A stretch of DNA of 64,000 nt from Spirochaetaceae bacterium (GTDB lineage Bacteria > Spirochaetota > Spirochaetia > DSM-2461). The notes below the pieces were generated by a model. The model was given only the letters and a program-made list of their open reading frames with translations, was not told the DNA's origin and did no database searches. The translations under genes were made by a program, and so were the position numbers. Below are positions 7,065-59,663 of the stretch, piece by piece; the stretch's first letter is position 1; every line of letters starts with the position of its first letter. The stretch lies in assembly GCA_051531975.1 (NCBI GenBank), contig JAOPTT010000007.1:216985-280984 (forward strand), given 5' to 3'.

Positions 7065-7073
7065 ATATCCCTC

Positions 7074-9811: not shown

Positions 9812-9812
9812 C

Positions 9813-13884: not shown

Positions 13885-13893
13885 ATATTCCTC

Positions 13894-14781: not shown

Positions 14782-14799
14782 TAGGGACTCCTAAAAGAA

Positions 14800-14818
14800 G
14801 CGGGCATATAATGCCCGC
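14800..14818 (-). terminator. Stem-loop plus U tract between SBP2 and permease
   Basis: GCGGGCAT-ATA-ATGCCCGC, followed on the minus strand by TTCTTTT. Confidence 0.65.
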
Positions 14819-14826
14819 ATAATTAA

Positions 14827-22072: not shown

Positions 22073-23110
22073 TTATGGTTTGTTTTGTCCTATGACATTA
22101 CGATATACATCTTCTTTGGAATGGAATCCATCGTTTATAACAGTATCATCCAGTTGTTCTCTAAATACAGGTATAGGCTTTTCAACATAAAATGGGATCT
22201 CTATATCACTATTATTATCTATATATCTATCGGGTTTAAACTGGGATTTATTAGCCATTGATACAGCTAATTTAGCTGCTCTAACAGCTAGGCGGTGAAT
22301 CGGCTTATACACAGTCATCAATTGTGTTCCTTCGACAATATTCTGACAGGAGACTAGATCTGCATCCTGGCCGACAACAGCTACTTGCCCTGCTAATTGT
22401 CTTTCAGACAGTAGTCTAATGGCAGCCTGGGCAATTAGATCATTTGCTGCAGATATGGCCTGTATATCTTCTGTTCTCTCCAGAACCTTCCCAATCTCAA
22501 TTATGGCTTCATCATAACTCCAATGTTCTAACCAGATCTCTTCTACAAGATTAATATCTCCCTGTTCTATAAAAGGGTCTAGAACCTCATGAACCCCATT
22601 GTTAACTTGAGTGCTATTGTTATCATGAACAGAGCCGTTAACAATGATATAATTGCCTTTTGGAACATGGTTAGTTAGGGACACTGCTAAAAGCCTTCCC
22701 ACCTCGGTATTATCAAAAGAGACATAACCAGTTATAGGAACATCCATAATTGGTCTGTCATATGCTAATACGGGAATCCCCCGATCAAGGGTTTTCTGAA
22801 TAACTCCCGCCAATAGGGCCTTATCCTGGGGAATGACTACAAGAACATCGATATCTTGTTTTAATAGATATAGTATCTGAGGAATCTGATCATTGGCAGT
22901 ACCAGAAGATTTGGCAAATATTACTTCTGCATTTAATTCTCTTGCCGCGTTCATAAAGATCTTTATATCTCTGTCCCATCTCTCTAGAAGGAAGGTTTCT
23001 GACGCCACAGAAAAACCGATACGGATAACTTCATTATCTTTGGGTTTATTTTTAGAACAGGAAGAAATGAGAATAATGGAAATAATTATGAAAATATACT
23101 TTTTGGACAT
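22073..23110 (-). CDS. XylF-like sugar-binding lipoprotein
   Basis: Lipobox ISSC; ERWDRD, AYDR, SFDN..VG, GQDADL, QLMTVYKPI. Confidence 0.85.
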   Translation of the reverse strand: MSKKYIFIIISIILISSCSKNKPKDNEVIRIGFSVASETFLLERWDRDIKIFMNAARELNAEVIFAKSSGTANDQIPQILYLLKQDIDVLVVIPQDKALLAGVIQKTLDRGIPVLAYDRPIMDVPITGYVSFDNTEVGRLLAVSLTNHVPKGNYIIVNGSVHDNNSTQVNNGVHEVLDPFIEQGDINLVEEIWLEHWSYDEAIIEIGKVLERTEDIQAISAANDLIAQAAIRLLSERQLAGQVAVVGQDADLVSCQNIVEGTQLMTVYKPIHRLAVRAAKLAVSMANKSQFKPDRYIDNNSDIEIPFYVEKPIPVFREQLDDTVINDGFHSKEDVYRNVIGQNKP

Positions 23111-24603
23111 TATAGTGAACCTCTTTTTTCAAAATCAGATGGTGAAATACCCATAACTTTTCGGAAAATACGACTGAAGTAGTTCGGATCTTTGTAACCA
23201 ACCAGATAGGTAACCTCTTTTATGGTGATATTTTTATCTCTAAGCAGTATCACGGCTGCGTTAATACGGTAACGATTTAGATAATCAATGAAATTGATAT
23301 CTAGATGCTCTGAAAACAGTCTACTCAGATAACTTCCTGAGACTAAACACTCATCGGCAACCAATGTAAGTGATAGTTTTTCTCTGTAGTTTTCTGCTAT
23401 AAACGACAAAGCTTTATTTAATGGAAGAGGGTAAGAATAATTCTTTTGCATATCCAAGACAGCAAATAGGGATCTCATGGCACCTTCAGCCCATTTTTCC
23501 CAGGCATCAATGGATTCGAGGGGCATAATCTCCTCGGCAGGCTCTATATTGAATTGATTATCTAATAGTATATGACTCTCTATGTCCTGTAATAACAGTG
23601 TAAATAGAGCCACCATTTTTCCTTTTGCAACTGGAAATGTGTCCATCTTAAATGTGTGAATCCAAAATTCCTTAAAAAGATCTTCCCCGATAGCTCTTTC
23701 ACTTTTAAGTATATTCTTAAATAGGGACAATATTTTTCTTTGTTGTAAGTCACCGCCCCCAGATCCTGATTTTTCATCAGAAAAAGGTAAATAGGCTTCA
23801 GAGAATGATTTTGTGATTTCGGAATAATGGTAGATAGATCCAACTCCAAGAATTAGATTATATTTTTCCATCTGACCTATAATTTTCCGTATATTCGATT
23901 CGAGATTTTTTAAGTCTCTCTCTTCTGGAAACAGAAACAATAATTTATCCCCTAACTCACTAGTAAGACAATTATACTTATATTTGATTTTCTGAGTGAT
24001 GATTTTAAATATATCGGCCCTCATATCCAAGGAAATATGTGAAATACCTCCAATCAAGTAAATAGCTGCCTTTTCACAGTTGATAGAAAAGACTTTTGCA
24101 AATTCATCCCATTCCTTCTCCTGTGGATTATTCCAGATTAAGGTTGTTAAAAATGATTTTTGCATTTCGCTTCGGGTTTTTTCTAGGAGTTGAACATCTT
24201 CCAACTTGTGTGCACTTTCTTTTTTCCTGATATCCAGATAATGCTTAACTTTATCCAGCTCTTCTAGAACCTTATTTCTTGAGACCGGTTTAATTAGGTA
24301 GCTGAAAACACCGAGACGAATAGCTTTCTGAGCAATATCAAATCTCTCGTATGCTGTAGATAGAATAAATACCATATTGGGGAATAGAGGTCTTAGCTGT
24401 TTTATCACCTCAATACCATCTAAACCAGGCATCTGAATGTCCATAAAGACTAGATCTGGTGACTTTTCTGTTATCTCTTTTATGGCCTCAGTTCCAGAAC
24501 GTGCCTGTCCACAGAGAGTAAATTCTGTAACGTATTTTTTAAAAATAAAATTGAAACTATCCAGAACAGGTTCTTCATCATCAACAATCATAACTCTATA
24601 CAT
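23110..24603 (-). CDS. YesN-type response regulator (REC + AraC HTH)
   Basis: VDDE, MDIQMP, YLIKP; C-terminal YLSRLF, GYKDPNYFSRIFRK. Confidence 0.92.
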   Translation of the reverse strand: MYRVMIVDDEEPVLDSFNFIFKKYVTEFTLCGQARSGTEAIKEITEKSPDLVFMDIQMPGLDGIEVIKQLRPLFPNMVFILSTAYERFDIAQKAIRLGVFSYLIKPVSRNKVLEELDKVKHYLDIRKKESAHKLEDVQLLEKTRSEMQKSFLTTLIWNNPQEKEWDEFAKVFSINCEKAAIYLIGGISHISLDMRADIFKIITQKIKYKYNCLTSELGDKLLFLFPEERDLKNLESNIRKIIGQMEKYNLILGVGSIYHYSEITKSFSEAYLPFSDEKSGSGGGDLQQRKILSLFKNILKSERAIGEDLFKEFWIHTFKMDTFPVAKGKMVALFTLLLQDIESHILLDNQFNIEPAEEIMPLESIDAWEKWAEGAMRSLFAVLDMQKNYSYPLPLNKALSFIAENYREKLSLTLVADECLVSGSYLSRLFSEHLDINFIDYLNRYRINAAVILLRDKNITIKEVTYLVGYKDPNYFSRIFRKVMGISPSDFEKRGSL

Positions 24604-26084
24604 GGATCCACCTCTGTATTAATATTAATAATAATTTCAGTTCCATTTTGGCTCTCGCTCTTGATTTCTATTACGTTATCCTCTTCTGGATAAAAAAAGT
24701 AACAACGTTGTATAACATTTTCTAACCCCATAACCTTTGAACTTAACTGATAATCATGAGTATGGGATGTTAATAAGGCCTTAACTGTTTTTTGGGGGAT
24801 ACCAATTCCATTATCCTTAACACTAATTTTCAGGATAGGGTCGAGAAATTCTATTTTGACAATAATACTTCCTAACCCCTCTTTTGTTTTAAAAGCATGT
24901 ACTACAGAGTTTTCGACAATGGGTTGAAGGATCATGGCTGGACAGCTGAACCTGTCCAGGAGATCCTCGGGGATTATTAATTCAAGATTTAGAGAGTGGG
25001 GGAATCTTATTTTCAATATGTTAAAATAGGATTTTAATCCCTCGTATTCATGGCGGAGAGGTACAAAGAATTTCTTCTCCCTTATATTATAACGAAACAG
25101 TGCTGCCAGGTTTTCCATAAAGTCAGCTGTTTTCTCCGCTTCTTCAACGATGGCTAGCTGAACACCTGTATTAATCGTATTAAAAAGAAAATGTGGGTTC
25201 ATCTGAGCCTGCATAGTATATAATTCCATTCTCTTGAGTAGTTGCTCCATCTTCAAATTACGAACCCTCTCGGTCATTATCTGCTTTTCAATCTCTTTCT
25301 GTTTTTGTAATTCCTTTATGTAATGGCTGATGCTGTTCTTCATATTATTAAAAGCGGTCGCTACGTGATTTATCTCATTAACAGAGTCAAATTTAACATC
25401 AGGAAGTTCAAAATCTCCACTTGAAATTTTTTCAGCCATAATAGACAACTGCTGAATAGGATAAGATACTGTATTGATATTTCTCATGAGTATGGAAAAT
25501 GAAAATGCCATAATGAGTATTATCAGAATGAGACTGTAGAGTTGAATGTTTCTAAATAGATCCAGAAAATTACCATATTCTCCTAATTGACTTCTGAATC
25601 CTTGTAGACTGACAATATCAATCCGCTTTGTTATATAATTGTATAGTACAAATAAATCTTCAAATCCTCCGGTGTATTCACTTACATTACGTCCTCTTTT
25701 CCATTCTATTATCTGTTTTACCTGAATAAGGTAAGAATCAAGTAAAAAATATATTTCCCGCTTTAACAACTCCTCATCATCATTATAAATCTGACGAGAA
25801 TCGGGTAAGGATTCTTTTAAGGTCTCTGTTGAATATAAAAGCTTAGCCAATGAGGATGATGAGTAAACACTCAAATAGGTCTCAAGCGAGGTCTGAATCT
25901 CGTTTAACTGGAGCTGGAGTTCATGAAGGATCTGCTCATCTTCAAACCTCTTATCCGCAATATTCTGTAGTGTCAGTGAAATGGCAAATATGAATCCAAA
26001 AGAGATAAGGGTAAAGGAGATGGAAAAAGTAAAATAATAGAGTAATTTTGCTTTTAATGAGTTTTTGATTCTAAATTTACTCAC
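24588..26084 (-). CDS. YesM/LytS-type sensor histidine kinase
   Basis: Two TM segments, HAMP, QAQMNPHFLFNT H-box, QPIVENSVVH, DNGIG. Confidence 0.92.
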   Translation of the reverse strand: MSKFRIKNSLKAKLLYYFTFSISFTLISFGFIFAISLTLQNIADKRFEDEQILHELQLQLNEIQTSLETYLSVYSSSSLAKLLYSTETLKESLPDSRQIYNDDEELLKREIYFLLDSYLIQVKQIIEWKRGRNVSEYTGGFEDLFVLYNYITKRIDIVSLQGFRSQLGEYGNFLDLFRNIQLYSLILIILIMAFSFSILMRNINTVSYPIQQLSIMAEKISSGDFELPDVKFDSVNEINHVATAFNNMKNSISHYIKELQKQKEIEKQIMTERVRNLKMEQLLKRMELYTMQAQMNPHFLFNTINTGVQLAIVEEAEKTADFMENLAALFRYNIREKKFFVPLRHEYEGLKSYFNILKIRFPHSLNLELIIPEDLLDRFSCPAMILQPIVENSVVHAFKTKEGLGSIIVKIEFLDPILKISVKDNGIGIPQKTVKALLTSHTHDYQLSSKVMGLENVIQRCYFFYPEEDNVIEIKSESQNGTEIIININTEVDPCIEL

Positions 26085-27048
26085 CGTTTCCTACCCCGCG
26101 TCCATCCTTTGTAATGACACTAATTCCCGTGTCTACAAATGCCGATGTATAACCATTTGTACTCAGTTCCTGAAGAGCCATAACTGCACTGAATCCAATA
26201 CGGTAGGGGTTTCTAATAATAGAACCTAAGATAAGTTCCTTATCTATATATTCCTTAATTTTTTTATCATCACCAAATCCAATAATTTTCACATTTCCTA
26301 CAAGATTCATATCTATTATGGCCTGAACCGAAACCAGTGTATCATTTGGATCTGTCAAAACTATGACATCTATTTTTTGTTCCTGACGCATTAATTGATA
26401 TGTTAGTCTCTCGGCATCCAGGGGATTCATACTTGTAACTTCTGTCTGAAGATGATTGATTTTATCATTTAGAATAGAGTTTAGTCCAAGTTCCACAAGA
26501 TTCCCATCTGACATCAGTCCCGGATTTTTATCACTGAAAACAAGGGCTATGTTTAGTTTATCGCTTTTCGCTTTTAACGCTAGTTTAGCTATTGCTTTGC
26601 CAGATTCAAAATTATTTGTACCAATAAAGAATGTTGTTTCATCACGAATAATTTCATTTTCTATCTGTATTATAGGGATACCTGCTTTTGAGATTTTTGT
26701 AAGGTTTTTAATGATTTTATCATCTTTTGAATATGGGTATATACCAATTCCATCGACCCCGGATAAGGTAACCATATCAAAACTCATTGGATCTGCATCG
26801 ATCTCATGAAAAGTGATTGCACAATCCATAGTCTCTGAGGCATGGATTGCCCCTTCTTTTAATAGAGTGAAAAATGAATAATTCGATGCTGGGAGGAAGA
26901 AGGCATAATGATTGGATTTCTCTTCGCTATCCTCTCTGTCACCCCTGAAGAAAAATGTACTCTTCAGCATTGTACTAAGCGATAATAAAAGAAATATGAT
27001 AAAAAGTGAGGTGAAAATGTAAGGTGCATATTTAAAGAATCTATTCAC
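26077..27048 (-). CDS. Membrane-anchored sugar-binding sensor protein (XylFII-like)
   Basis: N-terminal TM anchor, periplasmic-binding fold (IGTNNFESG, IIGF, P..IG..AV); overlaps the kinase gene; GTG start. Confidence 0.78.
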   Translation of the reverse strand: MNRFFKYAPYIFTSLFIIFLLLSLSTMLKSTFFFRGDREDSEEKSNHYAFFLPASNYSFFTLLKEGAIHASETMDCAITFHEIDADPMSFDMVTLSGVDGIGIYPYSKDDKIIKNLTKISKAGIPIIQIENEIIRDETTFFIGTNNFESGKAIAKLALKAKSDKLNIALVFSDKNPGLMSDGNLVELGLNSILNDKINHLQTEVTSMNPLDAERLTYQLMRQEQKIDVIVLTDPNDTLVSVQAIIDMNLVGNVKIIGFGDDKKIKEYIDKELILGSIIRNPYRIGFSAVMALQELSTNGYTSAFVDTGISVITKDGRGVGNGE

Positions 27049-43342: not shown

Positions 43343-45325
43343 ATGGTAATTAGTCAGTTAAGTAAAAAAATAGTTATGGTCACAGTTTTATTTGGCTTTA
43401 TGCTCTTTGTAGTTTTATTAAGTATTGAAAACTATATAAGTTATAATAAATCAGTGCAAAGTGTTTATGATAGCCATGATTATATCCAAAAATCTTCTAT
43501 TACAAGCATAAGTGAAAGTTTATGGGTAATGGATTATAATCAGATTGATAATTTGTTAAATGGTTTAATAATACTTGATAACATAAAAAGTATAACTATT
43601 AACTTAGATGGAGAAGTATATGCTCAAAAATCTACAAATCTTAAATCAATAGATGTAATTACAAATATACCTCTTACATATATTAAAAAAAGTGAGAAGG
43701 TCATCCTGGGAGAATTAATAATACATAGTAGTTTTGATGAGATTAAACAAAATATGTATGAAAAATTTTTTGGAAATGTTCCAATATATGGAATTGGGAT
43801 ATTAATGTTTTTAATATTTTTATTAATAGCCATACATAATATTATAACAAGACACCTGATAGATTTTGTAAAATATATTGATGTTCAAAACAAAAGAGAT
43901 AACTTTGAACCATTTCGCATAAACAGAGTGCTAAAGTATAAAAACAGACCAGATGAATTAGAGATAACTTTTGAATCCTATAATCAAGCAGCTAAGAAAT
44001 TATATATAGCAATAACCACACTTAAAAAAAATGAAGTAGAGCTTCAAAATCATAGAGATCATTTAGAAGCTATTGTAAAAAAGAGAACTTCGGAACTAAA
44101 CGAAACAATACTTGAGTTAAAGTCTACAAAGAAGGAGATGGATTCCTTAGTTTCTGATCTAATATATTCTAAAGAGTTAGCCGAAAAATCTACCACTGCT
44201 AAAAGTGAATTTCTTGCAAATATGAGCCATGAGATACGAACCCCTATGAATGGTATAATTGGAATAAGTGCAATCCTACAAGATAGTGAACTATCAGATG
44301 ATCAAAAAACTTATTTAGACATGATAACATCCTCAGCCGATGATCTATTAAATATTATTAACGACATTTTAGATTTTTCTAAAATAGAAGCTGGAAAAAT
44401 GGATGTCGAAGTAGCTGAGTTTAATATAGATGAATTAATGTCCCAGGTATTAGGCCAATTTTTTCTTAAAGCAAAAGAAAAAAAAATTGAGTTATCTACA
44501 GCTATATCAAAGGATATTCCATCAGTTGTTTTAGGTGATTCTTTAAGACTTAAACAGATTTTAATAAATTTAATAAATAACGCAATTAAGTTTACACATA
44601 AAGGGCATGTATTAGTTTCAGGAAAAGTAATTAGTAGAGAAGAGAGAGGAATTGTAGTTGAATTTTTAATCCGGGACTCTGGTATTGGAATAGCTAAGGA
44701 CAAATTAGGGGAGATCTTTAAACCTTTTTCACAAGCTGATAATTCTACTTCCAGAAAATATGGTGGTACCGGGTTAGGTTTAAGTATTTGTAATAAGCTA
44801 GTTACATTGCTTGGAGGCTCAATAAAAGTTGAAAGCCAAGTAGATAAAGGTAGTGAATTCTCTTTTACTATATTTTTAGAATATTCTGATGATATAGAAA
44901 GTCGTGTATCTATTCATGAAGAAACTAAGTCATTTTCAAAGTCTTCTGATACATCTAAACTTAATGGGACCAATATATTAGTTGTAGAAGATATAGATAT
45001 TAATCAAGAAGTGATAAAAGCCACATTAGAGAGATTACAAATAAATGTAGATATAGTCGACAATGGATTTTCTGCAATAACTATGGTTCAGAAAAAAAAT
45101 TATGACTTTGTATTAATGGATATACAAATGCCAGTAATGAATGGCTATGAATCGACTAAAAAAATTAGGAGTATTCCTGAATTTAGAGAACTTCCTATTA
45201 TCGCGATGACTGCAAATGCAATGAAAGGAGATAAAGAGAAGTCTCTTGATGCAGGTTTAACCGACTATATTTCTAAACCAGTAAATAGAGATGAGCTCTA
45301 CTCTATTTTACTAAAATGGATATAA
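43343..45325 (+). CDS. Hybrid sensor kinase (HisKA-HATPase-REC, no Hpt)
   Basis: Two TM segments, [37 protein letters not shown]...KP. Confidence 0.92.
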
Positions 45326-48149: not shown

Positions 48150-48452
48150 ATGGCAGAGAAGCGTGGTAGCAAAAGATTTATGATTATATCCAAAGTTGAA
48201 TGCTTCAAAACATCCGGGGAGACTATAAACCTTAGTAGAAAAGGTATGCAGATAAAATATGAGACAGAACTTCCAATAAATACCCCTATCTCTTTTTTTG
48301 TTTTTTTACCTAATAGTGGAATGTTAACTGTTAATGGTAGAATCTTGTGGTATAACGAGCACAGTGTTTGTGGTATTAAATTCGAAAACAATCCACTAAA
48401 AGTTAGGCTTTGGTGGAACTTTTATATTCTAAAATTATGGTTTGGGTATTAA
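48150..48452 (+). CDS. Single-domain PilZ protein
   Basis: RGSKR (RxxxR) and NLSRKG (N/DxSxxG) motifs, G.I.W, GIKF; SD AGGAGG. Confidence 0.78.
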   Translation: MAEKRGSKRFMIISKVECFKTSGETINLSRKGMQIKYETELPINTPISFFVFLPNSGMLTVNGRILWYNEHSVCGIKFENNPLKVRLWWNFYILKLWFGY

Positions 48453-49264
48453 CCCAAAGCTACATCTAATACCATCATTGTTGCAAAACCTAACATAGCA
48501 CCAACTGTTGACCAATCGGTCTCTTGTCCAGTTTGAGATTCTGGAATTAGCTCTTCAACAACTACAAAAATCATTGCACCTGCAGCAAAAGAGAGAGCGT
48601 AGGGTAATAGTGGAGTCATTTTAAGAACCAATAATGCTCCAATAACACCTGCTATTGGTTCCACAATTCCAGATAATTGACCATATGTAAAAGCCTTAAA
48701 CCTTGAAAATCCTTCTCTTCTTAATGGTACAGATACAGCGGCACCTTCTGGGAAATTTTGTAAACCAATTCCAAGTGCTAATGCAATAGCCCCTGTTAAT
48801 ACTCCAATGGTTGAATTATGGGCTAATGCTCCAAAAGCAACCCCTACAGCTAGGCCTTCTGGTATGTTATGCAATGTAATAGACAGTACTAAAAGTACAC
48901 TACGTTGCCAGCTGGTTTTGATCCCTTCTGCTTTGTCTATTGTTAAACCCATATGCAAATGTGGAAGTAGTTTGTCCACTAAAAAAAGAAACACTCCCCC
49001 ACTTAAAAAACCTACAAGAGCAGGTACCCATGGTATTCCTCCTAGCTCTTCAGTTAATTCAATCGCTGGCTTTAATAGAGACCAAAAACTAGCAGCAATC
49101 ATAACTCCAGCAGCAAAACCTAACATGGAGTTATTTACTCTTTTGTTTATATTCTTAAAAAAGAAAACCATAGCAGATCCGGCAGCTGTTAAAAACCAAG
49201 TAAACAGAGTAGCAAATAGTGCTAAGATTATGGGGTTTATATCTAATAATGATTCTAAATTCAT
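48449..49264 (-). CDS. ZIP family metal transporter (GufA/ZupT-like)
   Basis: LHNIPEGLAVG, QNFPEG, VVEELIPE. Confidence 0.92.
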   Translation of the reverse strand: MNLESLLDINPIILALFATLFTWFLTAAGSAMVFFFKNINKRVNNSMLGFAAGVMIAASFWSLLKPAIELTEELGGIPWVPALVGFLSGGVFLFLVDKLLPHLHMGLTIDKAEGIKTSWQRSVLLVLSITLHNIPEGLAVGVAFGALAHNSTIGVLTGAIALALGIGLQNFPEGAAVSVPLRREGFSRFKAFTYGQLSGIVEPIAGVIGALLVLKMTPLLPYALSFAAGAMIFVVVEELIPESQTGQETDWSTVGAMLGFATMMVLDVALG

Positions 49265-49330: not shown

Positions 49331-49359
49331 TTGACTTAAGCTATATAGAATAATATTAT
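49331..49359 (+). promoter_or_regulatory. sigma70 promoter of the phosphorelay operon
   Basis: TTGACT-17-TATTAT. Confidence 0.6.
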
Positions 49360-49394: not shown

Positions 49395-49979
49395 ATGGAT
49401 AAAAATGGATTAAACTTTTTAACTATTGATTCTGACGATGGTTTGGATCGAGTTGGAGGTGACATTGAGTTCTATAAAGAACTATTATTAAGCTTTTTTG
49501 AAAGCTTTTCCACTGCTGAAGAAAAGTACCATAAGTTAATTCAAGAATCTGATATTACTAGCGCTAGAATTATAATTCATTCTATTAAAGGTGCTTCAGG
49601 TAATATCGGGGCAAAAGAGTTACAAAAAGTCGCAGGTTTATTAGAGGATTCAATAAAGACTGGGGATATAAACAGAGGGTTAGAACCCGCAGTTTTTGAA
49701 AGTCTTAATAAAACTATTCTAGAAATTGAATCTATTAAAATTGCAAAACCAGAAATAGACCTGACTACCCTAATATCTTCTTTAAAGCAGTTAGTTAAAC
49801 TTGAAGGCAGTAAATCTCCTATGCCTTTTAAACAGATATTCTCATTTCTAAATAGATACTCGTATCCACAAAATATTCAAGACAAAGTTGAGCAGATTGT
49901 ACTTAATGGTAAGAGGTACAAATTTAATGATTCTGTAAATGAAGCTAAGACACTTATTCAAAATATTGGAGAGGCCTAA
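49395..49979 (+). CDS. Stand-alone Hpt phosphotransfer protein
   Basis: GL.RVGG...[16 protein letters not shown]. Confidence 0.85.
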
Positions 49980-49980
49980 T

Positions 49981-52900
49981 TTGTCAAAATTAAAGAATAT
50001 ACTATTTACATTCATATTTCTAATCTTAGCTCAATTTTTAGTTGCCTTAGATTTAACGCCTGAGGAAAAACAGTGGATTAAAGATAACCCTATTATTAGG
50101 GTTAGTAATGAAATGAAATGGGCACCATTTAATTTTAATGTTTATGGTCAACCTAGAGGTTATTCTATAGAATACATGAATAAATTAGCACACATTTCAG
50201 GTTTGGAAATAGAGTATATCTCTGGTCCTGAATGGGGTGATTTTATGAATATGATTCAAAATGATCAACTAGATATCATATTGAATTGTGCATATACAGA
50301 AGAGAGGGATGAATTTCTAAATTTTACAGACCAATATTTGGGATTTGCTACTTCTGTATATATAAAAAACAGTGATGATTATATTAATAGTGTAGAAGAG
50401 TTATATGGAAAGACTATTGCCATCCCTACCGACTTTTATTTTGAATCATTAATAAAAAAATATCCCAAAATAACTATATTAAGTGTTAAAGATACTGCTG
50501 AAGCAATGTTAGCTGTATCTTCTGGTCAAGCTGATGCGATGTTAGACTTATCTCCTGTTGTCAATTATTTGATGAATGAATTATCAATTACAAATTTGAA
50601 ACCAGGTGGTAGTTTAGGATTAAACGAAGATCAAGTTTTATATGCATCCTTAGGTATAAGAGAAGATTATACTCTTTTACATTCCATAATGCAAAAGAGT
50701 ATGAGAGAAATAGGTTATGAAGAAGTTAGTAATTTAAAAAGAAAATGGTTAGGATATACTACTGATGATACAGGTAATGAGCTAACAGTTAAAGAGATAA
50801 ACTTTCTTAAAGAACATCCTGTTCTTAGGGTTCATAATGAGATGAATTGGCCTCCATTTAATTTTAATATCAATGGCATTCCTACTGGTTTGTCTATTGA
50901 GTACATGAACCTTCTAGCAAAAAAGTTAAATATAGATATAGAGTATATCTCTGGACCAAGTTGGGCAGTTTTTATGGATATGATAAAATTTAAAGAACTT
51001 GATGTTATGCTTAACATTATAAAAACACCCGCTAGAGAAAAGTTTATATTATATACAGATCATTATATAAAGAACCCAAATGTAATTGTTTCTAATAAAA
51101 ATAATAGATATAGAAGAATAGATGAATTAAAGGGTAAACAAGTTGCAATTGTTAAGGGATTCTCCGCTCAGGAGATAATTGAAAGAGATTACCCTGATAT
51201 TGAAGTTTATCTTGTAAAAGATACATTGGCAGGTTTAAAGGCTGTCTCTTTTAATCAAGCAGATGCCATGTTAAGTGAAGAAGCTGTATCTAATTATATA
51301 ATTAATGAAAACCTTATATCTAATTTAACTCTATCTGGAGAAGTTGAAATAGGTGGAGCTGAATACCCTCAACTAAATATTGGGATACGGGATGATTGGC
51401 CAGAACTACAAAGTATTTTACAAAAAACAATGTTGGATGTTACCACAGATGAGATGGATGTTTTAAAAAACAAGTGGATATTTAATAATTCAGTATTAAA
51501 CAGTGATATTCAGTCTGATGTTAGTAATAATAAAATAATAAAACAACTTTTAGTTATATTTATGTCTGCAGTAATTATTTTGATTCTATTTTTTATATTA
51601 CAAAAAAACTTAAATCGAAAAAGAATTGATAGTGCAACATTTGATCTTAAAAAGATGAGGTTGATAAGTCTAAGTATATTGGCTGCTAGTATTACAATTA
51701 TTATATTTATATCAATTATTGGTATTAATAATATTTACAAAAAATCTGTTGAGGATGCAAGATCAGAACTGAATAGTATTGTTACGACAACTCAGGAATC
51801 TCTAAAACTATGGACAAGTCGAAATTTAGATCAAGTTAAACTTGATTCAGCAAATCCAAATTTAGTTTCTTTGGTAGAGGAATTACTACGTTTACCCCTA
51901 GATAAAGATCTTCTTATAAATAACCGAGCTCAAGATGAGATTAGGCACTACTTTAAGGAGTTAAATCCATACTCTTTTTCGGAAGGATTTTTTATTATCT
52001 CACCGGATGGATATAATCTTGCTTCAAGTAGAGATAATAATATTGCAGATAAAAACCTTATTTTGTACCACCGCAAAGAGCTGCTTAAAGATACATTTAA
52101 TGGTAATGCGAACTTTATTCCACCAATACCTAGCGATTCATTTAAAGTAGGTGATAAGCCTACAGATAAATTTAGTATATTTTATGCCGTACCAATAAAG
52201 GATTCTAAAGGAAATGTTATTGCTGTAATGACCCAAAGAGAAGATCCAAATAAAGAGTTTAATAGAATCGCAAAACTTGGTATTTTTGGTTCCTCGGGGG
52301 AAACATATATCTATGATCATAATGGGTTTATGTTAAGTTCAAGTCGATATATAAATCAACTAACCTCTATAGGTCTGCTAAAAGATGGTGAATCCTCAAC
52401 CTTAACAATTCGATTAAAGGATCCTGGTGGTGACTTAACAAATGGTTATATTCCAGACATATATACTCCACAAATGGAAGATACCTTCATGTTAAAATAC
52501 TCTAAAAACAGTGGTTCTGGATATAACGTTGAAGGTTATAGAGACTATCGTGGAGTTGAGGTTTTAGGAGCTTGGATCTGGAACGACGGGTTAAATTATG
52601 GTGTTGTTTCCGAGATAGATAAATCTGATGCCCTATCCTCCTATTATATAACTAGGTCTGTATTTATTATTATTTTAATCCTCGTTTTTTTACTTTCTAC
52701 AGGAGCAACTCTATTTAGTATCTCTATAAGTGAAACTGCAAATAGGTCTTTAAAAAACTCTAACGATCAATTAGAGAATAGGGTTTTAGAGAGAACTAAG
52801 GAAGTTGTTTTTGCTAAGAGGAATTTAGAAAATACAATTGAGGCTCTAACACACCCTTTTTATGTTATTGACGCCAAAACTTATGAGATTGTATTAGCTA

Positions 52901-55395
52901 ACTCCTCAGCAAAAAAAGCAGCTAAAGGTAAAGAGATTACAACATGTTACCGGTTAACCCATAGGGTTGAAGAACCTTGCAGTAGTATAGAGCACCCATG
53001 TCCATTATCAATGGTAAAAGCGACTGGTAAAACAGCAAAAGTTGAACATATTCATTACGATGAAAATGATAAACCTATTTTTGTAGAAGTTCATGGGTAT
53101 CCTATTTTTGATGAAGACGGTGAATTAATTCAGATGATTGAGTATTCTCTTGATATCACAGATAGAAAAATTGCAGAAAAAGCTCTGGCTACTGCAAAGG
53201 ATGTAGCAGAAGACGCAACAAGAGCAAAATCTGATTTCTTAGCAAATATGAGTCATGAAATCAGAACTCCTATGAATGCAATTATAGGTCTATCTACTAT
53301 AATTCAGAAAACAGATCTTTCAGATAGGCAACAAGATTACATTCAGAAAATATACGGGTCGGCCCATAATCTTCTTGGTATTATAAACGATATTTTAGAC
53401 TTTTCAAAAATAGAAGCTGGAAAGCTTACAATGGAATCTATACCATTTGATATTAATGAAGTCTTCGAGAATCTTGGTAGTATGATTAGTTCTAAAGCGC
53501 AGGATAAGGGTTTAGAGCTTGTTTTTCATATCTCTACGGAGCTACCCAAAATGTTAGTAGGAGACCCATTAAGAATGGGGCAAATCCTTCTTAATTTAAC
53601 AAATAATGCAATTAAGTTCACAGAAGAAGGTGAAATTGCAGTTCAGGCTGAAGTTCTTAAAAAAGATGATAAACTTGTAGAGATAAAGTTTAGTGTTCGG
53701 GATACTGGTATTGGATTAACAAATGAGCAATCAAGCAAACTATTTAGGGCATTCTCCCAAGCAGATTCATCTACAACTAGGGAATATGGTGGTACAGGAT
53801 TAGGTCTCTCTATTAGTAAAAAACTGTGCGAAATGATGGGTGGACAAATTGGGGTTGTTAGTGCAGCAGGAGAGGGTTCCACATTCTTCTTTACAGGTAT
53901 TTTTGAATATAGTAACGACTATCAAAGAGATATCTTTCCAGAAGAATTACATAATTTAAAAGTCTTAATTGTTGATGATAACTTAACAAGTAGAGAAGTT
54001 CTAATGTCCTATGCAACAGATTTTGGATTTAAACCAACAGCAGTAGATAATGGAGTTGAAGCTATACAGCAAATAAGACATAACATAGAAAAGTCCATAG
54101 AAGATTTTGATCTTGTATTAATGGACTATAGCATGCCTAAAATGAATGGTTTTCAGACTTCTGTTAAAATCAATGAACTTTTAGAAGAGAATAGACGACC
54201 AAAATATATTTTAGTAACAGGTTATGGTCGAGACGAAACGATCCAAGGGGTAGAGAAATATGGATTTGTAGGATTTGTACTTAAACCAGTAAACCAATCC
54301 CTTCTATTTAATACTATTATGCAAGCTTTTGGTAAAGAAAGAAGAGATCAAAATAGATTATCCAGTAATGAATACCCTAAAGATTTTAATAAAGTTCGTG
54401 GTGCAAACATCTTATTAACTGAAGATAATCAGATTAATCAGGAAGTTGCTAGAGAATTACTTGAATCTGAAGGATTCATTATAGATATTGCAAATAACGG
54501 TAAAGAATCTGTTGATATGGCTAATGAAAAGGCATACGACATTATTTTAATGGATCTTCAGATGCCGGTTATGGATGGTTACGATGCAACAATTGCAATA
54601 AGAAAACAGGAGCAAAACAGAGATCTTTCAATAATAGCTATGACTGCTGACGCCATGACTGGAGTTCGGGATAGAGTCTTAGAAGTTGGTATGAACGATT
54701 ATGTTACAAAACCTATAGAAACTAATAAATTATGGTTAGCACTGACAAAGTGGATAGAGCATAAAGATAGAGATTTTTCAATAACTAATACAGACTCTGC
54801 ACCACCTAAAGAAATAGAAATAAATATTCCCGGAATTGATATGGAACAAGGAGTCAAAAGAGTTGGTGGAAACAAAGTATTATATAAAAAATTGTTAAAT
54901 AAGTTCATAGAGTCCAATAGAAACTTTAAAACACAAATATTAAACGCTACAAAAAATAACAATGAAGATGCCATACGATTTAGTCATACACTTAAAGGTG
55001 TTGCTGGTAATTTAGGTATGGAAGATCTTCAGGAAGAGACATTGAAGCTCGAGAGTGCACTTAAAAATGGAGCATCATTTACTGAACTTCTTGATAGTGT
55101 AGATCTAATGGTTTCTTCTATTATTACTTCAATATTAGACAGTAAAATTAATTTAGAACAAGAGACATCAAAAGAGATTGTTGACTGGCGTATTTTAAAA
55201 GAAGAATTAAAAGCTGTAATAGACAGCTTAGAAAAAAGAAAACCAAAACCTGCAATTGAATTAATAGATAAATATAGTGGTTCAGATTTAGAAGTAAGCA
55301 TATCTAAGGGTTTTAAAGAAGCAAAACAACTATTAACAAAATATAAGATGAAAGATGCACTTATAATTTTAAGTGAAATCGTTAAGGAGATATAG
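49981..55395 (+). CDS. Giant hybrid kinase: 2x SBP_bac_3 - TM - TM - Cache-like - TM - Cys-rich PAS - HisKA - HATPase - REC - REC - Hpt
   Basis: Two W.PFNF...G.SIEYM repeats, [22 protein letters not shown], two MD..MP receivers, [14 protein letters not shown] 49981 has SD GGAGAGG (alternative ATG 49939). Confidence 0.92.
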
Positions 55396-55397
55396 AA

Positions 55398-56831
55398 GTG
55401 GATAATGAAAGGAAATCGATTCTTGTTGTAGATGATACTCCCACTAATATAGATATATTACTGGATATATTATCTGAAAAATATGAGGTCTCGGTAGCTA
55501 TCGATGGTGAATCAGCCTTAGAAAGTGTTTCAGAAATGACACCAGATTTAATACTTTTGGATATTATGATGCCAGGAATGGATGGTTACGAGGTATGTTC
55601 TAGATTAAAGCAGAATGAAAGTACATCGGGAATTCCTGTTATATTTATTACTGCAATGACAGATATCAATAATGAAGTAAGAGGTTTTGAAGTTGGAGCA
55701 ATCGATTATATAACTAAACCATTTTCCCCACCTATTGTAGAGAGAAGAATTGAAACAGCACTTAAACTGGAGTCTAAAACCAAAGAATTAGCGCTATTAG
55801 CAAAAAAATTATCCAAATATCTATCCCCACAAGTATATGTATCAATTTTTAGAGGTGATCAGGATGTTAAAATTGAGTCTAATAGGAAAAAACTCACAAT
55901 CTTTTTCTCAGATATAGTTAATTTTACCTCAACAACTGAGGGAATGGAGTCTGAAGATTTAACGGCATTATTAAATAATTATTTAGATGAGATGTCAAAT
56001 ATTGCTCTAAAACATGGAGGTACTATAGATAAGTTTATAGGTGATGCAATTCTTATTTTCTTTGGAGACCCATTAACAAGAGGTGTACAAGAAGATGCAA
56101 TAGCTTGCGCTTCAATGGCAATAGAGATGAGAGATAGATTAGCTGAGTTACAGGATACTTGGCTATCCTATGGAATACAAAACCCATTCCAAGTACGTTT
56201 TGGTATTACAACAGGTTATTGTACCGTTGGAAATTTTGGAAGTAAAAATAGAATGGATTATACCATTATTGGTAGTCAGGTTAATATTGCAAGTCGATTG
56301 GAAACTAGTGCTGCTCCAGGGCAGATAATTGTATCCCATGAAACTTATGCTCAGATAAATGAGTCTATAAACTGTTATGTAAATAAAGAAATACATGTTA
56401 AAGGGATTTCAAGACCATTACAAACCTATTTAGTCTCAGAACTTAATACCGATGGTGTAGATACATCAAACATCAGGTCTTTAATGGAAACTACTGAATT
56501 TATTAGCAGTAAAATGTTGTCATCCGAGGCATTTAAGATTTATAGTAATAAAGACCCTGAGTTTCCAATTGTAGTTGTTGATGATAATATACCTAGAGGA
56601 ATAATAAGAAGGTTTCATATTTTAAATAATGAAATACCGATAGATACATTACCAATATCAAAAGCTTTGGTTGTAGATAAGAGTTGGCCAATAGATGAAG
56701 TTATACGATTGTATAAAAGTAATAATGAAGAGAAGTTAAATAATCCAATAATTGTTATGCACCAGGAAAAACTAGTTGGGATTATTAAAAATATAACAAT
56801 AATAAAATACATACTAAATAAAAAGGACTAA
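55398..56831 (+). CDS. Response-regulator adenylate cyclase (REC - class III cyclase - CBS-like pair)
   Basis: LDIMMP receiver; FSDIVNFT, IDKFIGDA, DYTIIGSQVNIASRLE; C-terminal VVVDD..P.GII and I.V.....LVGII repeats. Confidence 0.9.
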   Translation: MDNERKSILVVDDTPTNIDILLDILSEKYEVSVAIDGESALESVSEMTPDLILLDIMMPGMDGYEVCSRLKQNESTSGIPVIFITAMTDINNEVRGFEVGAIDYITKPFSPPIVERRIETALKLESKTKELALLAKKLSKYLSPQVYVSIFRGDQDVKIESNRKKLTIFFSDIVNFTSTTEGMESEDLTALLNNYLDEMSNIALKHGGTIDKFIGDAILIFFGDPLTRGVQEDAIACASMAIEMRDRLAELQDTWLSYGIQNPFQVRFGITTGYCTVGNFGSKNRMDYTIIGSQVNIASRLETSAAPGQIIVSHETYAQINESINCYVNKEIHVKGISRPLQTYLVSELNTDGVDTSNIRSLMETTEFISSKMLSSEAFKIYSNKDPEFPIVVVDDNIPRGIIRRFHILNNEIPIDTLPISKALVVDKSWPIDEVIRLYKSNNEEKLNNPIIVMHQEKLVGIIKNITIIKYILNKKD

Positions 56832-56834
56832 AAG

Positions 56835-57188
56835 ATGATATTAGTAGTTGATGATACCCCAGAAAACATAGATATCTTGTTAGAAATACTTGGTGAAGTT
56901 GATGATCTATCTGTAGCTTTAAGTGGAGAAGATGCATTAGAAATTGTTGAAGATGAAACACCAGATTTAATTGTACTAGACGTAGTAATGCCAGGAATGG
57001 ATGGTTATACCGTTTGTAAAACATTAAAAGCTAATGATAAATATAAAGATATTCCAATAATTTTTCTATCAGGGAATGATAGTGCAGAAGAGGTTCAAAA
57101 GGGACTGGACTTAGGCGCAGTTGATTTTCAGACGAAACCAATAGATCCTGAAAAACTAATTGCAGCAATAAATAAATATAAGAGGTAA
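56835..57188 (+). CDS. Single-domain response regulator
   Basis: VVDD, LDVVMP, FLS, TKP. Confidence 0.9.
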   Translation: MILVVDDTPENIDILLEILGEVDDLSVALSGEDALEIVEDETPDLIVLDVVMPGMDGYTVCKTLKANDKYKDIPIIFLSGNDSAEEVQKGLDLGAVDFQTKPIDPEKLIAAINKYKR

Positions 57189-57190
57189 TT

Positions 57191-57631
57191 ATGAGTTTAC
57201 AAGATGATAGACTAGGTTCTAAAAAGTCAATTCCATTAATAGGTGTTCGAAGGAATGGGCAACCTATAAAAGTTGTTGTTATCGACGATGTTTTTATAGA
57301 TTGTAGAATTACATCACAGATTTTAAGATCAACAGGTTTTGATGTAGTTGCAGAAGCTGATAATGGTAAAGATGGCCTAATAATGGTACAGCATGAAAAG
57401 CCTAGTATCGTTATTTTAGATTATTTAATGCCAGGTGTTGATGGATTATGGACACTTAAACAAATTAGAAAGATTGATCCTAATGTTAAAGTTATTATGT
57501 CAACTTCTGAAAGTGAAAAAGATCTAGTAATAGAACTTTTCAAAGAGGGAGCTACTGCATATATTGTTAAGCCTATAGATAGAACTGTAGTCTTAGAGAA
57601 ATTAAAGAAAGTAGTTGATGAACTACATTAA
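57191..57631 (+). CDS. CheY-like response regulator with N-terminal extension (spirochaetal CheY3-like)
   Basis: 146 aa, G....G.P..V..IDD, LDYLMP, MST, YIVKPIDR. Confidence 0.8.
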   Translation: MSLQDDRLGSKKSIPLIGVRRNGQPIKVVVIDDVFIDCRITSQILRSTGFDVVAEADNGKDGLIMVQHEKPSIVILDYLMPGVDGLWTLKQIRKIDPNVKVIMSTSESEKDLVIELFKEGATAYIVKPIDRTVVLEKLKKVVDELH

Positions 57632-57640
57632 GGAGTAAAA

Positions 57641-58969
57641 ATGAGTGAAAATATTATTGGGATTAATGATAGGCCTTCTATCGGAAAGTGGATCCCTTTA
57701 AGTCTACAACACGTATTTGCAATGTTTGGAGCAACAGTTTTAGTTCCAGCATTAACAGGTTTAAGTCCTACAACGGCACTTTTTACCTCGGGTATAGGTA
57801 CAATTATCTATATTTTAATTACTAAAGGTAAAGTTCCTGCATATTTAGGATCATCCTTTGCATTTATTGCACCTATAATACTTATTTCTGGTAAATTTGG
57901 TGTGGAATATGCTTTTGGTGCAGCATTCTGTGTTGGTATATTTTATACTCTTATAGCACTTCTTATTAGACAGTTTGGTAAAGGTTGGATAGACCGTTTA
58001 TTACCACCTGTTGTAGTTGGTTCAATTATTATTGTTATTGGTTTAACTTTGGCACCTGTTGCTATGAGTATGGCTATGAACACAGCAGTTGATCCATCTG
58101 GTTATAGTCTAGTTCACCTCTCTATTGCAGGTGTTACATTAGCAATAGCAGTAATTTCATCAATTGTATTAAAGGGATTTTTTAATGTTATACCTATACT
58201 AATTGGTATTATTGGTGGTTATCTATTTACGTTTATTATGGGGTTATTTTTTCCTGCATATCATATTATAAACTTTGATGTAATTGCAGCAGCAGACTCT
58301 TTTTCATTACCAAGTTATGTATTTCCAAAGTTTGCTATAATTCCGATAATAACATTTTTACTAGTGGCTTTAGCAACAATTGCTGAGCATCTTGGTGATA
58401 CCATGGTTTTAGGTAAAGTTTGTAAAAAAGATTTTTATAAAGAACCAGGTATACATAGAACATTAGCTGGAGACGGAGTAGCGACATCAATCGCAGCACT
58501 TTTTGGTGGACCTCCAAATACTACTTATGGTGAGAACGTAGGGGTAATGGCAATTACAGGGGTTCATTCTGTATGGGTAACTGGTGGAGCTGCAGTTGTT
58601 GCAATTGTACTATCATTTATTCCTCCAGTTGGGGCTTTCATACAGACTATTCCTAGCGCTGTAATGGGTGGTGTTTCTGCTATGTTATTTGGAATAATTG
58701 CATCAGCTGGTATCCGGACTATAAGCGAAAGTGGTATCAATTATGGTGAGAAGAGAAATTTAACTATTAGTTCTGTAATTTTAGTTATCGGAATTGGTGG
58801 TGGTAAGATTGTTGCTCCAATATCTGAGGGAGTTAGTTTCGAATTAGGTGGAGTTGCTTTAGCTGCTTTTGTTGGTATTATCTTAAACCTAGTACTTCCA
58901 AAGTCTTTAAACGATATACCTGAAGAGACAGCAGAAGAAATGATTCAACATGAGATAGATAAACAATAG
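57641..58969 (+). CDS. uraA: Uracil permease (NCS2 family)
   Basis: LQHVFAMFGATVLVP, YLGSSFAF, EHLGD, PNTTYGENVG. Confidence 0.92.
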   Translation: MSENIIGINDRPSIGKWIPLSLQHVFAMFGATVLVPALTGLSPTTALFTSGIGTIIYILITKGKVPAYLGSSFAFIAPIILISGKFGVEYAFGAAFCVGIFYTLIALLIRQFGKGWIDRLLPPVVVGSIIIVIGLTLAPVAMSMAMNTAVDPSGYSLVHLSIAGVTLAIAVISSIVLKGFFNVIPILIGIIGGYLFTFIMGLFFPAYHIINFDVIAAADSFSLPSYVFPKFAIIPIITFLLVALATIAEHLGDTMVLGKVCKKDFYKEPGIHRTLAGDGVATSIAALFGGPPNTTYGENVGVMAITGVHSVWVTGGAAVVAIVLSFIPPVGAFIQTIPSAVMGGVSAMLFGIIASAGIRTISESGINYGEKRNLTISSVILVIGIGGGKIVAPISEGVSFELGGVALAAFVGIILNLVLPKSLNDIPEETAEEMIQHEIDKQ

Positions 58970-59044
58970 TTTCTATAAATTGTGAATAATTTCCTAATGA
59001 TTCAACATGAGATAGATAAACAATAGTTTCTATAAATTGTGAAT
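58939..59044 (+). repeat. Exact 49-bp direct repeat (58939-58987 and 58996-59044)
   Basis: AATGATTCAACATGAGATAGATAAACAATAGTTTCTATAAATTGTGAAT twice, separated by AATTTCCT. Confidence 0.95.
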
Positions 59045-59052: not shown

Positions 59053-59088
59053 ATAAAAAGGGGTGATTATATCACTCCTTTTTTTATA
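59053..59088. terminator. Bidirectional terminator between uraA and the HAD gene
   Basis: ATAAAAAGGGGTGAT-TAT-ATCACTCCTTTTTTTAT. Confidence 0.7.
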
Positions 59089-59663
59089 AGTTCAGCTTTT
59101 AACTGATCAGGACTTTTAAAATGTATAGTATTAATACCAAAATCTTGCGCTACGTCTAAATTCACCTTTGTATCATCTATAAAAATTGTTTTATTAGTAT
59201 CAAATTTATATCGATCTATTATGTAGTGATAAATATTCTTTTCTGGTTTTACCATCTTTACATTTGAAGAAAAAACAATACCATCAAATTTATGCCAAAA
59301 AGAGTTATTTTCTAATAAACTTTGTGCTGATTCTAAATGCATATTAGATAAAACATATAATTTATGCCCACTGTTTTTAATTTCATCAAATAGATCTATA
59401 GTTCCTTGAATAGGAGTTAAAGCTTTAGGCACACAATCTAATATTTTTGATATCAGCTCTTTTTCTAGCCCAGACCTTTTTGATGCCCTTAATACAACAC
59501 TCTCTTTTTCTATTGTCCCACGATCTAATTCTATCCAATCATTATGTTCAAAAAGAGAACTGTATAGTGCACTCTTTTCTAAACCATCTTTAACATTCTC
59601 ATTTACTAATTTATCAGGATTCCAATCAAAAACAACCCCACCAAGATCAAAAATTATATTCAT
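59067..59663 (-). CDS. HAD family phosphatase (YihX-like)
   Basis: FDLGGV, LSN, KP, FIDD motifs. Confidence 0.88.
   Translation of the reverse strand: MNIIFDLGGVVFDWNPDKLVNENVKDGLEKSALYSSLFEHNDWIELDRGTIEKESVVLRASKRSGLEKELISKILDCVPKALTPIQGTIDLFDEIKNSGHKLYVLSNMHLESAQSLLENNSFWHKFDGIVFSSNVKMVKPEKNIYHYIIDRYKFDTNKTIFIDDTKVNLDVAQDFGINTIHFKSPDQLKAELIKKGVI

Follow-up and report, generated by a model that had tools for sequence, protein, structure and literature searches.

Gene content and domain composition of the cluster

The DNA considered here is a stretch of 64,000 nucleotides, referred to as the window, from one contig of a Spirochaetaceae bacterium, a marine spirochaete with a genome of 5.46 Mb in 29 contigs. 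Between positions 49395 and 58969, open reading frame (ORF) calling yields six co-directional ORFs on the plus strand. These encode a stand-alone Hpt protein, a giant hybrid histidine kinase, a protein composed of a receiver (REC), a nucleotide cyclase domain and a pair of CBS motifs (denoted REC-cyclase-CBS), two single-domain receivers named REC4 and REC5, and the permease UraA (Table 1). An earlier note on this DNA had described six co-directional genes with this domain content, a description that holds. The catalytic and phospho-acceptor residues of the signaling proteins are intact, and the gene order kinase – REC-cyclase-CBS – REC4, in part of the cases followed by REC5, is found again at other loci. 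We consider it likely that the cluster encodes a multistep His-Asp-His-Asp phosphorelay with cyclic AMP (cAMP) as its main output.

Table 1. Features of the gene cluster, in window coordinates (aa, amino acids).
Feature	Position	Strand	Evidence or remark
P0001, stand-alone Hpt protein, 194 aa	49395..49979	+	Pfam Hpt
Hybrid kinase gene	49939/49981..55395	+	1804 aa from TTG 49981 or 1818 aa from ATG 49939
P0003, REC-cyclase-CBS protein, 477 aa, GTG start	55398..56831	+	Pfam REC, Guanylate_cyc, CBS
Receiver of P0003, residues 1–125	55398..55772	+	Pfam REC, 100.2 bits
Predicted class IIIb adenylate cyclase catalytic domain of P0003, residues 160–349	55875..56444	+	Pfam Guanylate_cyc (PF00211), 100.1 bits versus 21.9
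C-terminal CBS pair (Bateman module) of P0003, residues 357–476	56466..56825	+	Pfam CBS, 25.7 bits versus 24, second motif
REC4 (P0004), single-domain receiver, 117 aa	56835..57188	+	Pfam REC, 97.9 bits
REC5 (P0005), CheY-like single-domain receiver, 146 aa	57191..57631	+	Pfam REC, 92.8 bits
uraA, uracil/NCS2 permease, 442 aa	57641..58969	+	Pfam Xan_ur_permease, TIGR00801
Candidate sigma-70-like promoter, TTGACT-17-TATTAT	49331..49359	+	10/12 match

The protein that would link phosphotransfer to cAMP synthesis is P0003. Its receiver carries D12, D13, the acceptor D55, T85 and K107. In a family alignment of 36 full-length members, which are 43–63% identical to the window protein, D12, D13, D55 and K107 are invariant (36/36), as are six residues of the catalytic domain, i.e., the metal-binding Asp residues D172 and D216 together with K212, T289, N296 and R300. 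An AlphaFold2 model of the entire protein, with a mean predicted local distance difference test score (pLDDT) of 84.4, comprises the receiver (pLDDT ~90), a long helix (residues 111–139), the cyclase domain (residues 160–349) and a C-terminal module in which a beta-alpha-beta-beta-alpha unit occurs twice. Fold matches of the receiver include DivK (1m5t, Z = 21.3).

Among solved structures, the catalytic domain is closest to CyaB of Pseudomonas (P.) aeruginosa (3r5g), with an E-value of 4e-71 in the sequence comparison and, in the fold comparison, Z = 28.7 and a root-mean-square deviation of 1.7 over 193 residues at 56% identity; taking sequence and fold alignments together, the identity to CyaB is 56–62%. 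The domain also matches that of the class IIIb enzyme CyaC from Spirulina (S.) platensis (1wc1; E = 2.6e-31), where DFT pairs with the DYT of P0003 and the same Lys and Thr are present. Residues D172, D216, N296 and R300 pair with identical residues in both CyaB and CyaC, and the offset of the fold alignment places K212 and T289 on CyaC residues 1057 and 1139, which we take to be the substrate-binding Lys/Thr pair. Because T289 matches the Thr of CyaC, the catalytic domain of P0003 is, as judged from its sequence, a class IIIb adenylate cyclase, with cAMP as the predicted product.

The accessible part of PMC2613629 describes class IIIb as having the substrate Lys and a Thr that replaces the substrate-binding Asp of class IIIa, and states that the prokaryotic class IIIb enzymes examined up to then all responded to CO2/bicarbonate. 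With the assignment to class IIIb, such a response becomes a prediction also for P0003, which, by analogy, may respond to CO2/bicarbonate. The earlier note had named the class III metal Asp residues, the Lys and the catalytic N..R pair, all of which are in place (D172, D216, K212, N296 and R300), and its expectation that the enzyme should make cAMP is supported by the likeness to the adenylate cyclase CyaB and by the class IIIb Lys/Thr. Its proposal that the Asp of the motif MDYT selects ATP was off by two positions; the predicted specificity residue is Thr289, i.e., the T of MDYT.

The C-terminal tail is the least conserved part of P0003 (mean column identity of 49% in seven orthologs). All 50 matches listed in the whole-protein fold search fell on the cyclase or the receiver and none was informative on the tail, which was therefore modeled alone (pLDDT 86.9). 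All 46 Protein Data Bank (PDB) ranks listed by Foldseek for this model are CBS modules or CBS-containing proteins, with a probability of 1.00 and template modeling (TM) scores of 0.55–0.74. A profile built from seven orthologous tails matches CBS-pair proteins across both motifs (E = 3.6e-10).

The kinase contains, in this order, a first transmembrane segment (TM1), two Venus-flytrap domains (SBP_bac_3), TM2, TM3, a Cache-like domain and TM4, followed in the cytoplasmic part by PAS, HisKA, HATPase_c, REC1, REC2, Hpt and a tail, as identified with Pfam. The four hydrophobic segments (residues 21–39, 536–554, 578–596 and 908–926, numbered from the ATG start) are consistent with a topology in which two distinct modules face the periplasm. 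The tandem flytrap region is related to the periplasmic moiety of BvgS (4q0c; E = 3e-29, query residues 26–477) and to EvgS (9ilw; E = 7e-17), and the protein has the layout of these unorthodox kinases, i.e., tandem periplasmic flytraps followed by PAS, transmitter, receiver and Hpt. All its scores against NCBIfam equivalogs are below threshold (EvgS, 272.7 versus 1995; BarA, 509.1 versus 890; TorS, 431.5 versus 676.5), and because those for EvgS and BarA are below the cut-offs, the kinase is not an ortholog of either. The second periplasmic module is called Cache-like from a dCache_1 match of 34.0 bits, below the 45-bit Pfam cut-off, and from a language-model look-up in which 18/30 matches carry the dCache_1 family set, with top scores of 0.96–0.97; a PDB sequence search returned no relative of this region, with nothing below E = 0.29. 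Given a flytrap pair, a Cache-like domain and a PAS domain, the term multi-input, previously applied to this kinase, is fair at the domain level.

The PAS domain harbors, at window ~52945–53010, a Cys/His-rich motif in which three conserved His residues accompany the Cys pattern C-x11-C-x5-C. All six of these residues are found also in a kinase ortholog from another genome of the class (G213), where the PAS region is 64% identical. The motif is a candidate site for a metal or redox cofactor.

In the stand-alone protein P0001, the Hpt domain spans residues 29–93 (Pfam PF01627, 35.2 bits versus a cut-off of 24.6) and contains the phosphorylatable His, H62, in the motif HSIKG. It is followed by a C-terminal extension of ~100 residues to which no fold is assigned. 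The C-terminal Hpt domain of the kinase (33.4 bits versus the cut-off of 24.6) is 33% identical to this free Hpt, and the His of its HTLKG motif aligns with that of HSIKG. The five receivers encoded in the cluster, i.e., REC1 and REC2 of the kinase, the receiver of the cyclase, REC4 and REC5 (all PF00072), have each kept the acidic pair (DD/ED), the acceptor Asp, the Thr/Ser and the Lys; in REC1 and REC2, which jointly score 150.6 bits over two stretches, the aligned residues are the acidic pair, the acceptor Asp, Thr and Lys.

REC4 and the cyclase receiver are 55% identical. Their alpha-1 stretches, DDTPENIDILLEIL in REC4 and DDTPTNIDILLDIL in the cyclase receiver, are nearly alike (shared stretch DDTPxNIDILLxIL), and this likeness is kept in the orthologs. 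Helix alpha-1 is the main partner-recognition element of a receiver. The simplest reading of the near-identity is that REC4 and the cyclase receiver share one phosphodonor, for which they would probably compete. For both receivers the best NCBIfam match is the PleD model, below its cut-off, and REC4 gives an additional subthreshold match to a DivK-type family.

Recurrence of the gene order at other loci

The REC-cyclase-CBS protein belongs to a family with a broad distribution. Of the best 119 protein clusters other than the query's own, 55 match it over 96% or more of its length and are 481–504 residues long. Named sources of the full architecture are Oceanispirochaeta, Thermodesulfobacteriota, Desulfovibrio ferrophilus and a metagenome-assembled genome (MAG) of Deltaproteobacteria, and the nearest named cyclase homologs are from Oceanispirochaeta and Spirochaetales MAGs. 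A scan of the genome collection with the whole cyclase was swamped by the receiver motif DIMMPGMD, and L013 was the single locus with a high-identity match that extended past the receiver. In a sample of 400 genomes of the class, orthologs were defined by a match that reaches through the CBS tail.

For three loci of the class and a set of metagenome loci, ORFs were called and compared with the six window proteins by BLASTP, and their domains were assigned with Pfam. A full-length cyclase ortholog is present at six independent loci (L112, L113, L114, L115, L118 and L119; the arrangement at L116 and L117 is the same as that at L115). At all six, a kinase gene is found directly upstream on the same strand, in four cases with an Hpt-bearing C-terminus like that of the window kinase. 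The variants of this upstream kinase include a small REC-HisKA-HATPase protein (L113) and three kinase genes in a row (L115). A REC4 ortholog (55–67% identical) follows directly downstream of the cyclase at five of the six loci, and is absent at L114. The next gene is a REC5 ortholog at three of five assessable loci; BipA is found at L112, a 534-aa gene at L114, and at L118 the contig ends. A free Hpt gene upstream is present at one (L112) of two assessable loci. A uraA homolog was found at none of the six orthologous loci and at none of the 47 related loci surveyed (L112–L158). The synteny search suggested with the earlier note is thus positive for the kinase-cyclase-REC4 core (6/6 and 5/6), partly so for REC5 (3/5), and negative for uraA (0/6), which is rejected as a functional member of the system of which it had been considered a part.

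The upper half of the cluster recurs as well. An Hpt gene together with a full-length ortholog of the kinase (47–49% identical) is found also in two other genomes, G213 and G296, with Hpt proteins of 203 and 205 aa encoded upstream of the kinase, and in both a REC4-type receiver (56–65% identical) adjoins the Hpt-kinase pair. In G296, identified in a search with the sensor region, the kinase ortholog (47% identical) is accompanied by a divergent REC4-type receiver (56%), and there is no cyclase at the locus. The spirochaete's own genome encodes a paralog of the kinase (locus L174, G000:C9:234000-252000; ORF 3267–9098, 1943 aa, 54% identical over the sensor) with the same domain order, followed by ABC-transporter genes and no cyclase.

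Because the kinase partners vary while the order recurs, two stable units can be recognized, kinase – REC-cyclase-CBS – REC4 (– REC5) and Hpt – this kinase – REC4, and the sensor end is exchangeable. A functional link between the kinase, Hpt, the REC-cyclase protein and at least one small receiver, as originally proposed, is supported by the recurrence of the upstream kinase and of the cyclase-REC4 pair in other families of the class and in metagenomes, and by that of Hpt with the full-length kinase ortholog in G213 and G296. A fixed six-gene layout did not withstand the comparison, since one genome from the same family (G289) carries the kinase and the cyclase at unlinked positions.

A proposed phosphorelay and alternative readings

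In the scheme that we infer, the kinase would sense via its BvgS/EvgS-like flytrap pair, the Cache-like domain and the cytoplasmic PAS domain. It would then autophosphorylate and transfer the phosphoryl group to its own receiver(s) and onward to Hpt, i.e., its C-terminal Hpt domain and/or the stand-alone protein. The phosphorylated Hpt would donate to Asp55 of P0003, and phosphorylation of this receiver would, via the long connecting helix, switch the conversion of ATP to cAMP by the dimeric class IIIb domain, where activation by phosphorylation is the more likely direction. The CBS pair would add a second, intracellular input, with a ligand that is probably an adenine nucleotide or similar. 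REC4 would most likely draw on the same phosphorylated Hpt as a competing sink or buffer, REC5 could constitute a second branch of the relay, and uraA is probably a co-transcribed passenger outside the signaling module.

A number of observations weigh against this scheme. Orthologs of the cyclase are rare in the class, with three found among the 400 other sampled genomes (G213, G289 and G221), and none was found in three genomes of the same genus (96, 81 and 71% complete); the cassette may have been acquired by transfer in this genome. With the query used, no cyclase ortholog was found in G296, a genome that is 85% complete. In G289 the kinase ortholog (46% identical over the sensor) is located on another contig, between genes for a GntR-type regulator and a deoxynucleoside kinase, and the cyclase is preceded by a small REC-HisKA-HATPase protein. 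In G221 the kinase that adjoins the cyclase has a different, PAS-rich sensor. P0003 itself is without 11 linker residues between the two CBS motifs of its tail, which is encoded at window 56445–56828; this linker is present at least partly in all 35 aligned relatives, and 34 of the 35 have all 11 residues. In addition, cyclic-nucleotide signaling is much expanded in this genome, with 29 class III cyclase, 36 Hpt and 24 cyclic nucleoside monophosphate (cNMP)-binding matches, and the numbers of cyclase and Hpt matches make cross-talk plausible.

The alternative readings overlap partly with the proposed relay. REC4 and/or REC5 could, as feedback partners, regulate the kinase or the cyclase allosterically, in a manner similar to DivK or PilG. 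Caulobacter DivK acts on its kinases beside PleD, and the CheY-like protein PilG is needed for CyaB activity in P. aeruginosa. As in the divK-pleD arrangement, the gene for a single-domain receiver here adjoins one for a receiver-nucleotide-cyclase. The PleD model is the best one for both REC4 and the cyclase receiver, REC4 also matches the DivK-type family (all these matches being subthreshold), and DivK itself ranks near the top of the fold matches for the cyclase receiver. The accessible part of the literature ties the activity of CyaB, the closest solved catalytic relative, to FimL, FimV and the Pil-Chp pathway, and in G296 REC4 stays beside the Hpt-kinase pair at a locus without a cyclase. 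The near-identity of the alpha-1 stretches is, in contrast, most simply explained by competition for one phosphodonor, and we regard an allosteric role as rather unlikely. A still somewhat less likely reading concerns the free Hpt, which might collect phosphate from other, Hpt-less hybrid kinases such that the cluster is a hub and the giant kinase not the main donor. With an Hpt already built into the kinase, a further, free Hpt would otherwise be redundant, and the CHASE5 hybrid kinase encoded at 43343–45325 has no Hpt and is a possible further donor. Moreover, two of the three kinase genes before the cyclase at L115 match only the HisKA-HATPase-REC part, and the kinase partner varies among the orthologous loci. 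The adjacency of Hpt and the full-length kinase ortholog in three genomes (that of the window, G213 and G296) argues instead for a joint function. That the cyclase makes another nucleotide (cGMP, cCMP/cUMP), or is a catalytically dead sensor with a receiver and a CBS pair, appears very improbable. Class III domains do include guanylate and pyrimidine cyclases, and the guanylate cyclase Cya2 (2w01) as well as cyclic UMP/CMP synthases are among the cyclase fold matches listed. However, Cya2 has Glu at the position of K212 and KYG, with Gly at that of T289, opposite DYT, and a guanylate cyclase reading of P0003 was rejected on the presence of Lys/Thr rather than Glu/Gly. The six catalytic positions are intact and invariant in the family alignment, and the domain has 56–62% identity to a bona fide adenylate cyclase.

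Concerning REC5, the earlier note had proposed a CheY3-like protein with motility as a probable output. REC5 has an N-terminal extension of 25 residues, and its best PDB relatives are CheYs, including CheY3 of Borrelia (B.) burgdorferi (3hzh; E = 7.5e-19); the match to this structure spans query residues 21–141 and chain residues 32–154, i.e., it begins inside the extension. The che operon of this genome, CheA – CheW/CheR – CheX – CheY, is found on contig C6 (locus L161), and its 144-aa CheY has both the N-terminal extension and the motif YIVKPxDR in common with REC5. These features would be consistent with a CheY3-type motor regulator, in which case the system would have two outputs, cAMP and a direct change in flagellar rotation. 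However, the che operon is complete, and its CheY is only 42% identical to REC5. Against the CheY equivalog models (NF007901 and NF041367), the scores of REC5 are far below the cut-offs, with 72.1 versus 189 and 74.5 versus 200, and REC5 orthologs are missing at two of the five assessable loci. REC5 is closer to the cassette-linked receivers of the metagenome loci L115 and L119 (55–59% identity), and equally close to a 155-aa paralog (55–56%) outside the che operon. The latter is encoded on C6 (locus L159, G000:C6:512000-531000; ORFs 9077–11094 (-) and 11204–15909 (+)), where it is followed by a DUF5312 protein and oriented divergently from the genes for a REC-HD-GYP protein and for a hybrid kinase with a PDC sensor, PAS, REC and Hpt. 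By sequence relationship, REC5 is a CheY-derived receiver of a separate clade that travels with phosphorelay and second-messenger cassettes. The CheY-like part of the earlier designation stands; an identity with the che-operon CheY was rejected, and a motility output is unsupported in view of the location of the che operon and of the separate clade beside hybrid-kinase genes. A motor target for REC5 is possible, and a role as CheY3-type motor regulator is given a minor share of the probability.

The proposed relay can be extended to a coincidence detector, in which periplasmic ligands would act via the relay, CO2/bicarbonate at the active site and the adenylate or energy status via the CBS pair, with DivK-like feedback from REC4 and an action of REC5 on the periplasmic flagellar motor. 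We hold this combination to be doubtful, less probable than any of the roles discussed above for the free Hpt or the small receivers. If true, spirochaetes and some sulfate reducers would share a module that ties motility to cAMP.

At locus L159, a 7TMR-DISM cyclase is encoded 4 kb away.

Related systems, gene spacing and genomic context

The individual elements of the cluster are known from other organisms. In cyanobacterial CyaC (Spirulina/Anabaena) the order is receiver – histidine kinase – receiver – class IIIb adenylate cyclase, and work by Kasahara and Ohmori in 1999, cited in PMC1183210, is said to have found that phosphotransfer in this protein controls cAMP synthesis. The likeness to CyaC is that phosphotransfer to a receiver beside a class IIIb catalytic domain with the same Lys/Thr would set cAMP synthesis. 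In contrast to the proteins of the window, the kinase and receivers of CyaC are fused in one protein, and no Hpt step, CBS pair or companion single-domain receiver is known for it. The catalytic domain of P. aeruginosa CyaB is the closest one solved, and, according to the accessible part of the literature, the activity of CyaB requires a chemosensory pathway in which CheY-like receivers take part. The N-terminal part of CyaB is a membrane part, where P0003 has a receiver; CyaB has no CBS pair, and its control is indirect through FimL/FimV. BvgS and EvgS share with the window kinase the tandem periplasmic flytraps followed by PAS, HisKA, HATPase, REC and Hpt, but the window kinase adds a Cache-like module, two membrane spans and a second receiver, and its partner is not a DNA-binding regulator.

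In the Caulobacter DivK–PleD system, a single-domain receiver is found beside a receiver-nucleotide-cyclase, and the two obtain phosphate from a common set of kinases. Model and fold searches with the window receivers place PleD and DivK among the best matches, but PleD makes cyclic di-GMP (GGDEF domain) and the system is not known to include an Hpt step or a CBS pair. In Dictyostelium, a relay from a histidine kinase via RdeA (Hpt) to RegA sets the cAMP level. The Dictyostelium systems differ from that of the window in being eukaryotic, in that RegA is a phosphodiesterase and not a cyclase, and in having no CBS pair. The Dictyostelium adenylate cyclase ACR carries kinase and receiver domains on the cyclase itself, according to the accessible part of PMC3009899. 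The spirochaete che operon of the cheY3 type resembles the cluster in its CheY, which is ~42% identical to REC5 and has the N-terminal extension and YIVKPxDR, but REC5 is found outside this operon, does not reach the scores required for CheY and falls into a separate clade associated with hybrid-kinase cassettes.

Thus, receiver-gated cyclases, relays that set cAMP, BvgS-like kinases, class IIIb cyclases and CBS pairs are all known already. The new element is the conserved combination of REC – class IIIb cyclase – CBS with a duplicated receiver, often also a CheY-like receiver, behind a hybrid kinase, and the presence of this REC-cyclase-CBS cassette in spirochaetes. Within the open-access literature, which leaves subscription journals uncovered, no published study of a REC-cyclase-CBS protein or of the spirochaete layout was found, in line with the earlier statement that no characterized spirochaete system has it. 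The cassette overturns no principle of two-component or cAMP signaling. Its interest lies in that cAMP signaling in free-living spirochaetes is almost unexplored, despite the 29 cyclase and 24 cNMP-binding matches in this genome alone, and that a kinase with recognizable domains for ligand binding, a class IIIb cyclase probably gated by its receiver, and two companion receivers that may serve as sink, feedback element or output together form a defined, conserved and biochemically tractable entry point. Members of the REC-cyclase-CBS family occur in both spirochaetes and Thermodesulfobacteriota and are frequent in metagenomes.

The genes of the cluster are closely spaced. Intergenic distances of 2, 3, 2 and 9 bp separate the genes at the later four junctions, from the kinase gene through uraA. 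The junction between the Hpt and kinase genes depends on the start of the latter: TTG at 49981, with GGAGAGG 6 nt upstream, gives a 1-bp gap, and ATG at 49939 gives a 41-bp overlap. The gaps of 1–9 bp reported before are accordingly correct for the later four junctions, and for the first one only with the TTG start. From this spacing we infer that the six genes are co-transcribed. The position of the genes behind one promoter, also claimed, could not be confirmed: the 10/12 match (Table 1), in the 130-bp gap between a divergent ZIP transporter gene and the Hpt gene, is a candidate, and promoter-like sites are no more common in this AT-rich region (~30% GC) than expected by chance (58 found versus 58.4 expected from shuffles). 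None of the eight terminator-like sites found in the region is on the plus strand. Searches with Pfam and NCBIfam found no DNA-binding domain in any of the six proteins, in agreement with the claim that the cluster lacks a DNA-binding response regulator. The flanking genes are on the opposite strand and encode the ZIP transporter (48449–49264) and a HAD hydrolase (59067–59663), as assigned with Pfam.

The permease scores above the cut-off of the NCBIfam model for the NCS2 superfamily, TIGR00801 (385.1 versus 291.8), and slightly below that of the uracil permease model NF007995 (439.3 versus 477). A perfect direct repeat of 49 nt is found at window positions 58939–58987 and 58996–59044, with a spacing of 57 nt; it copies the last 31 nt of uraA, including the stop codon, and the 18 nt downstream. 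The repeat could be a tandem duplication or an assembly artifact.

The assignment to a spirochaete made in the earlier note is supported by three matches to FlaA, the sheath protein of the periplasmic flagellum, for which none of 14 control genomes gave a match, and by the Oceanispirochaeta and Spirochaetales origin of the nearest named cyclase homologs. Two further signaling loci are found in the window. The CHASE5 hybrid kinase (CHASE5-HisKA-HATPase-REC, plus strand) is encoded 4 kb upstream of the free Hpt gene. At 22073–27048, on the minus strand, two periplasmic binding proteins, a His_kinase/HAMP kinase and a REC-AraC regulator are encoded next to GH43, pentose-pathway and ABC-transporter genes; this region is an ordinary carbohydrate-utilization locus with a sugar-sensing set.

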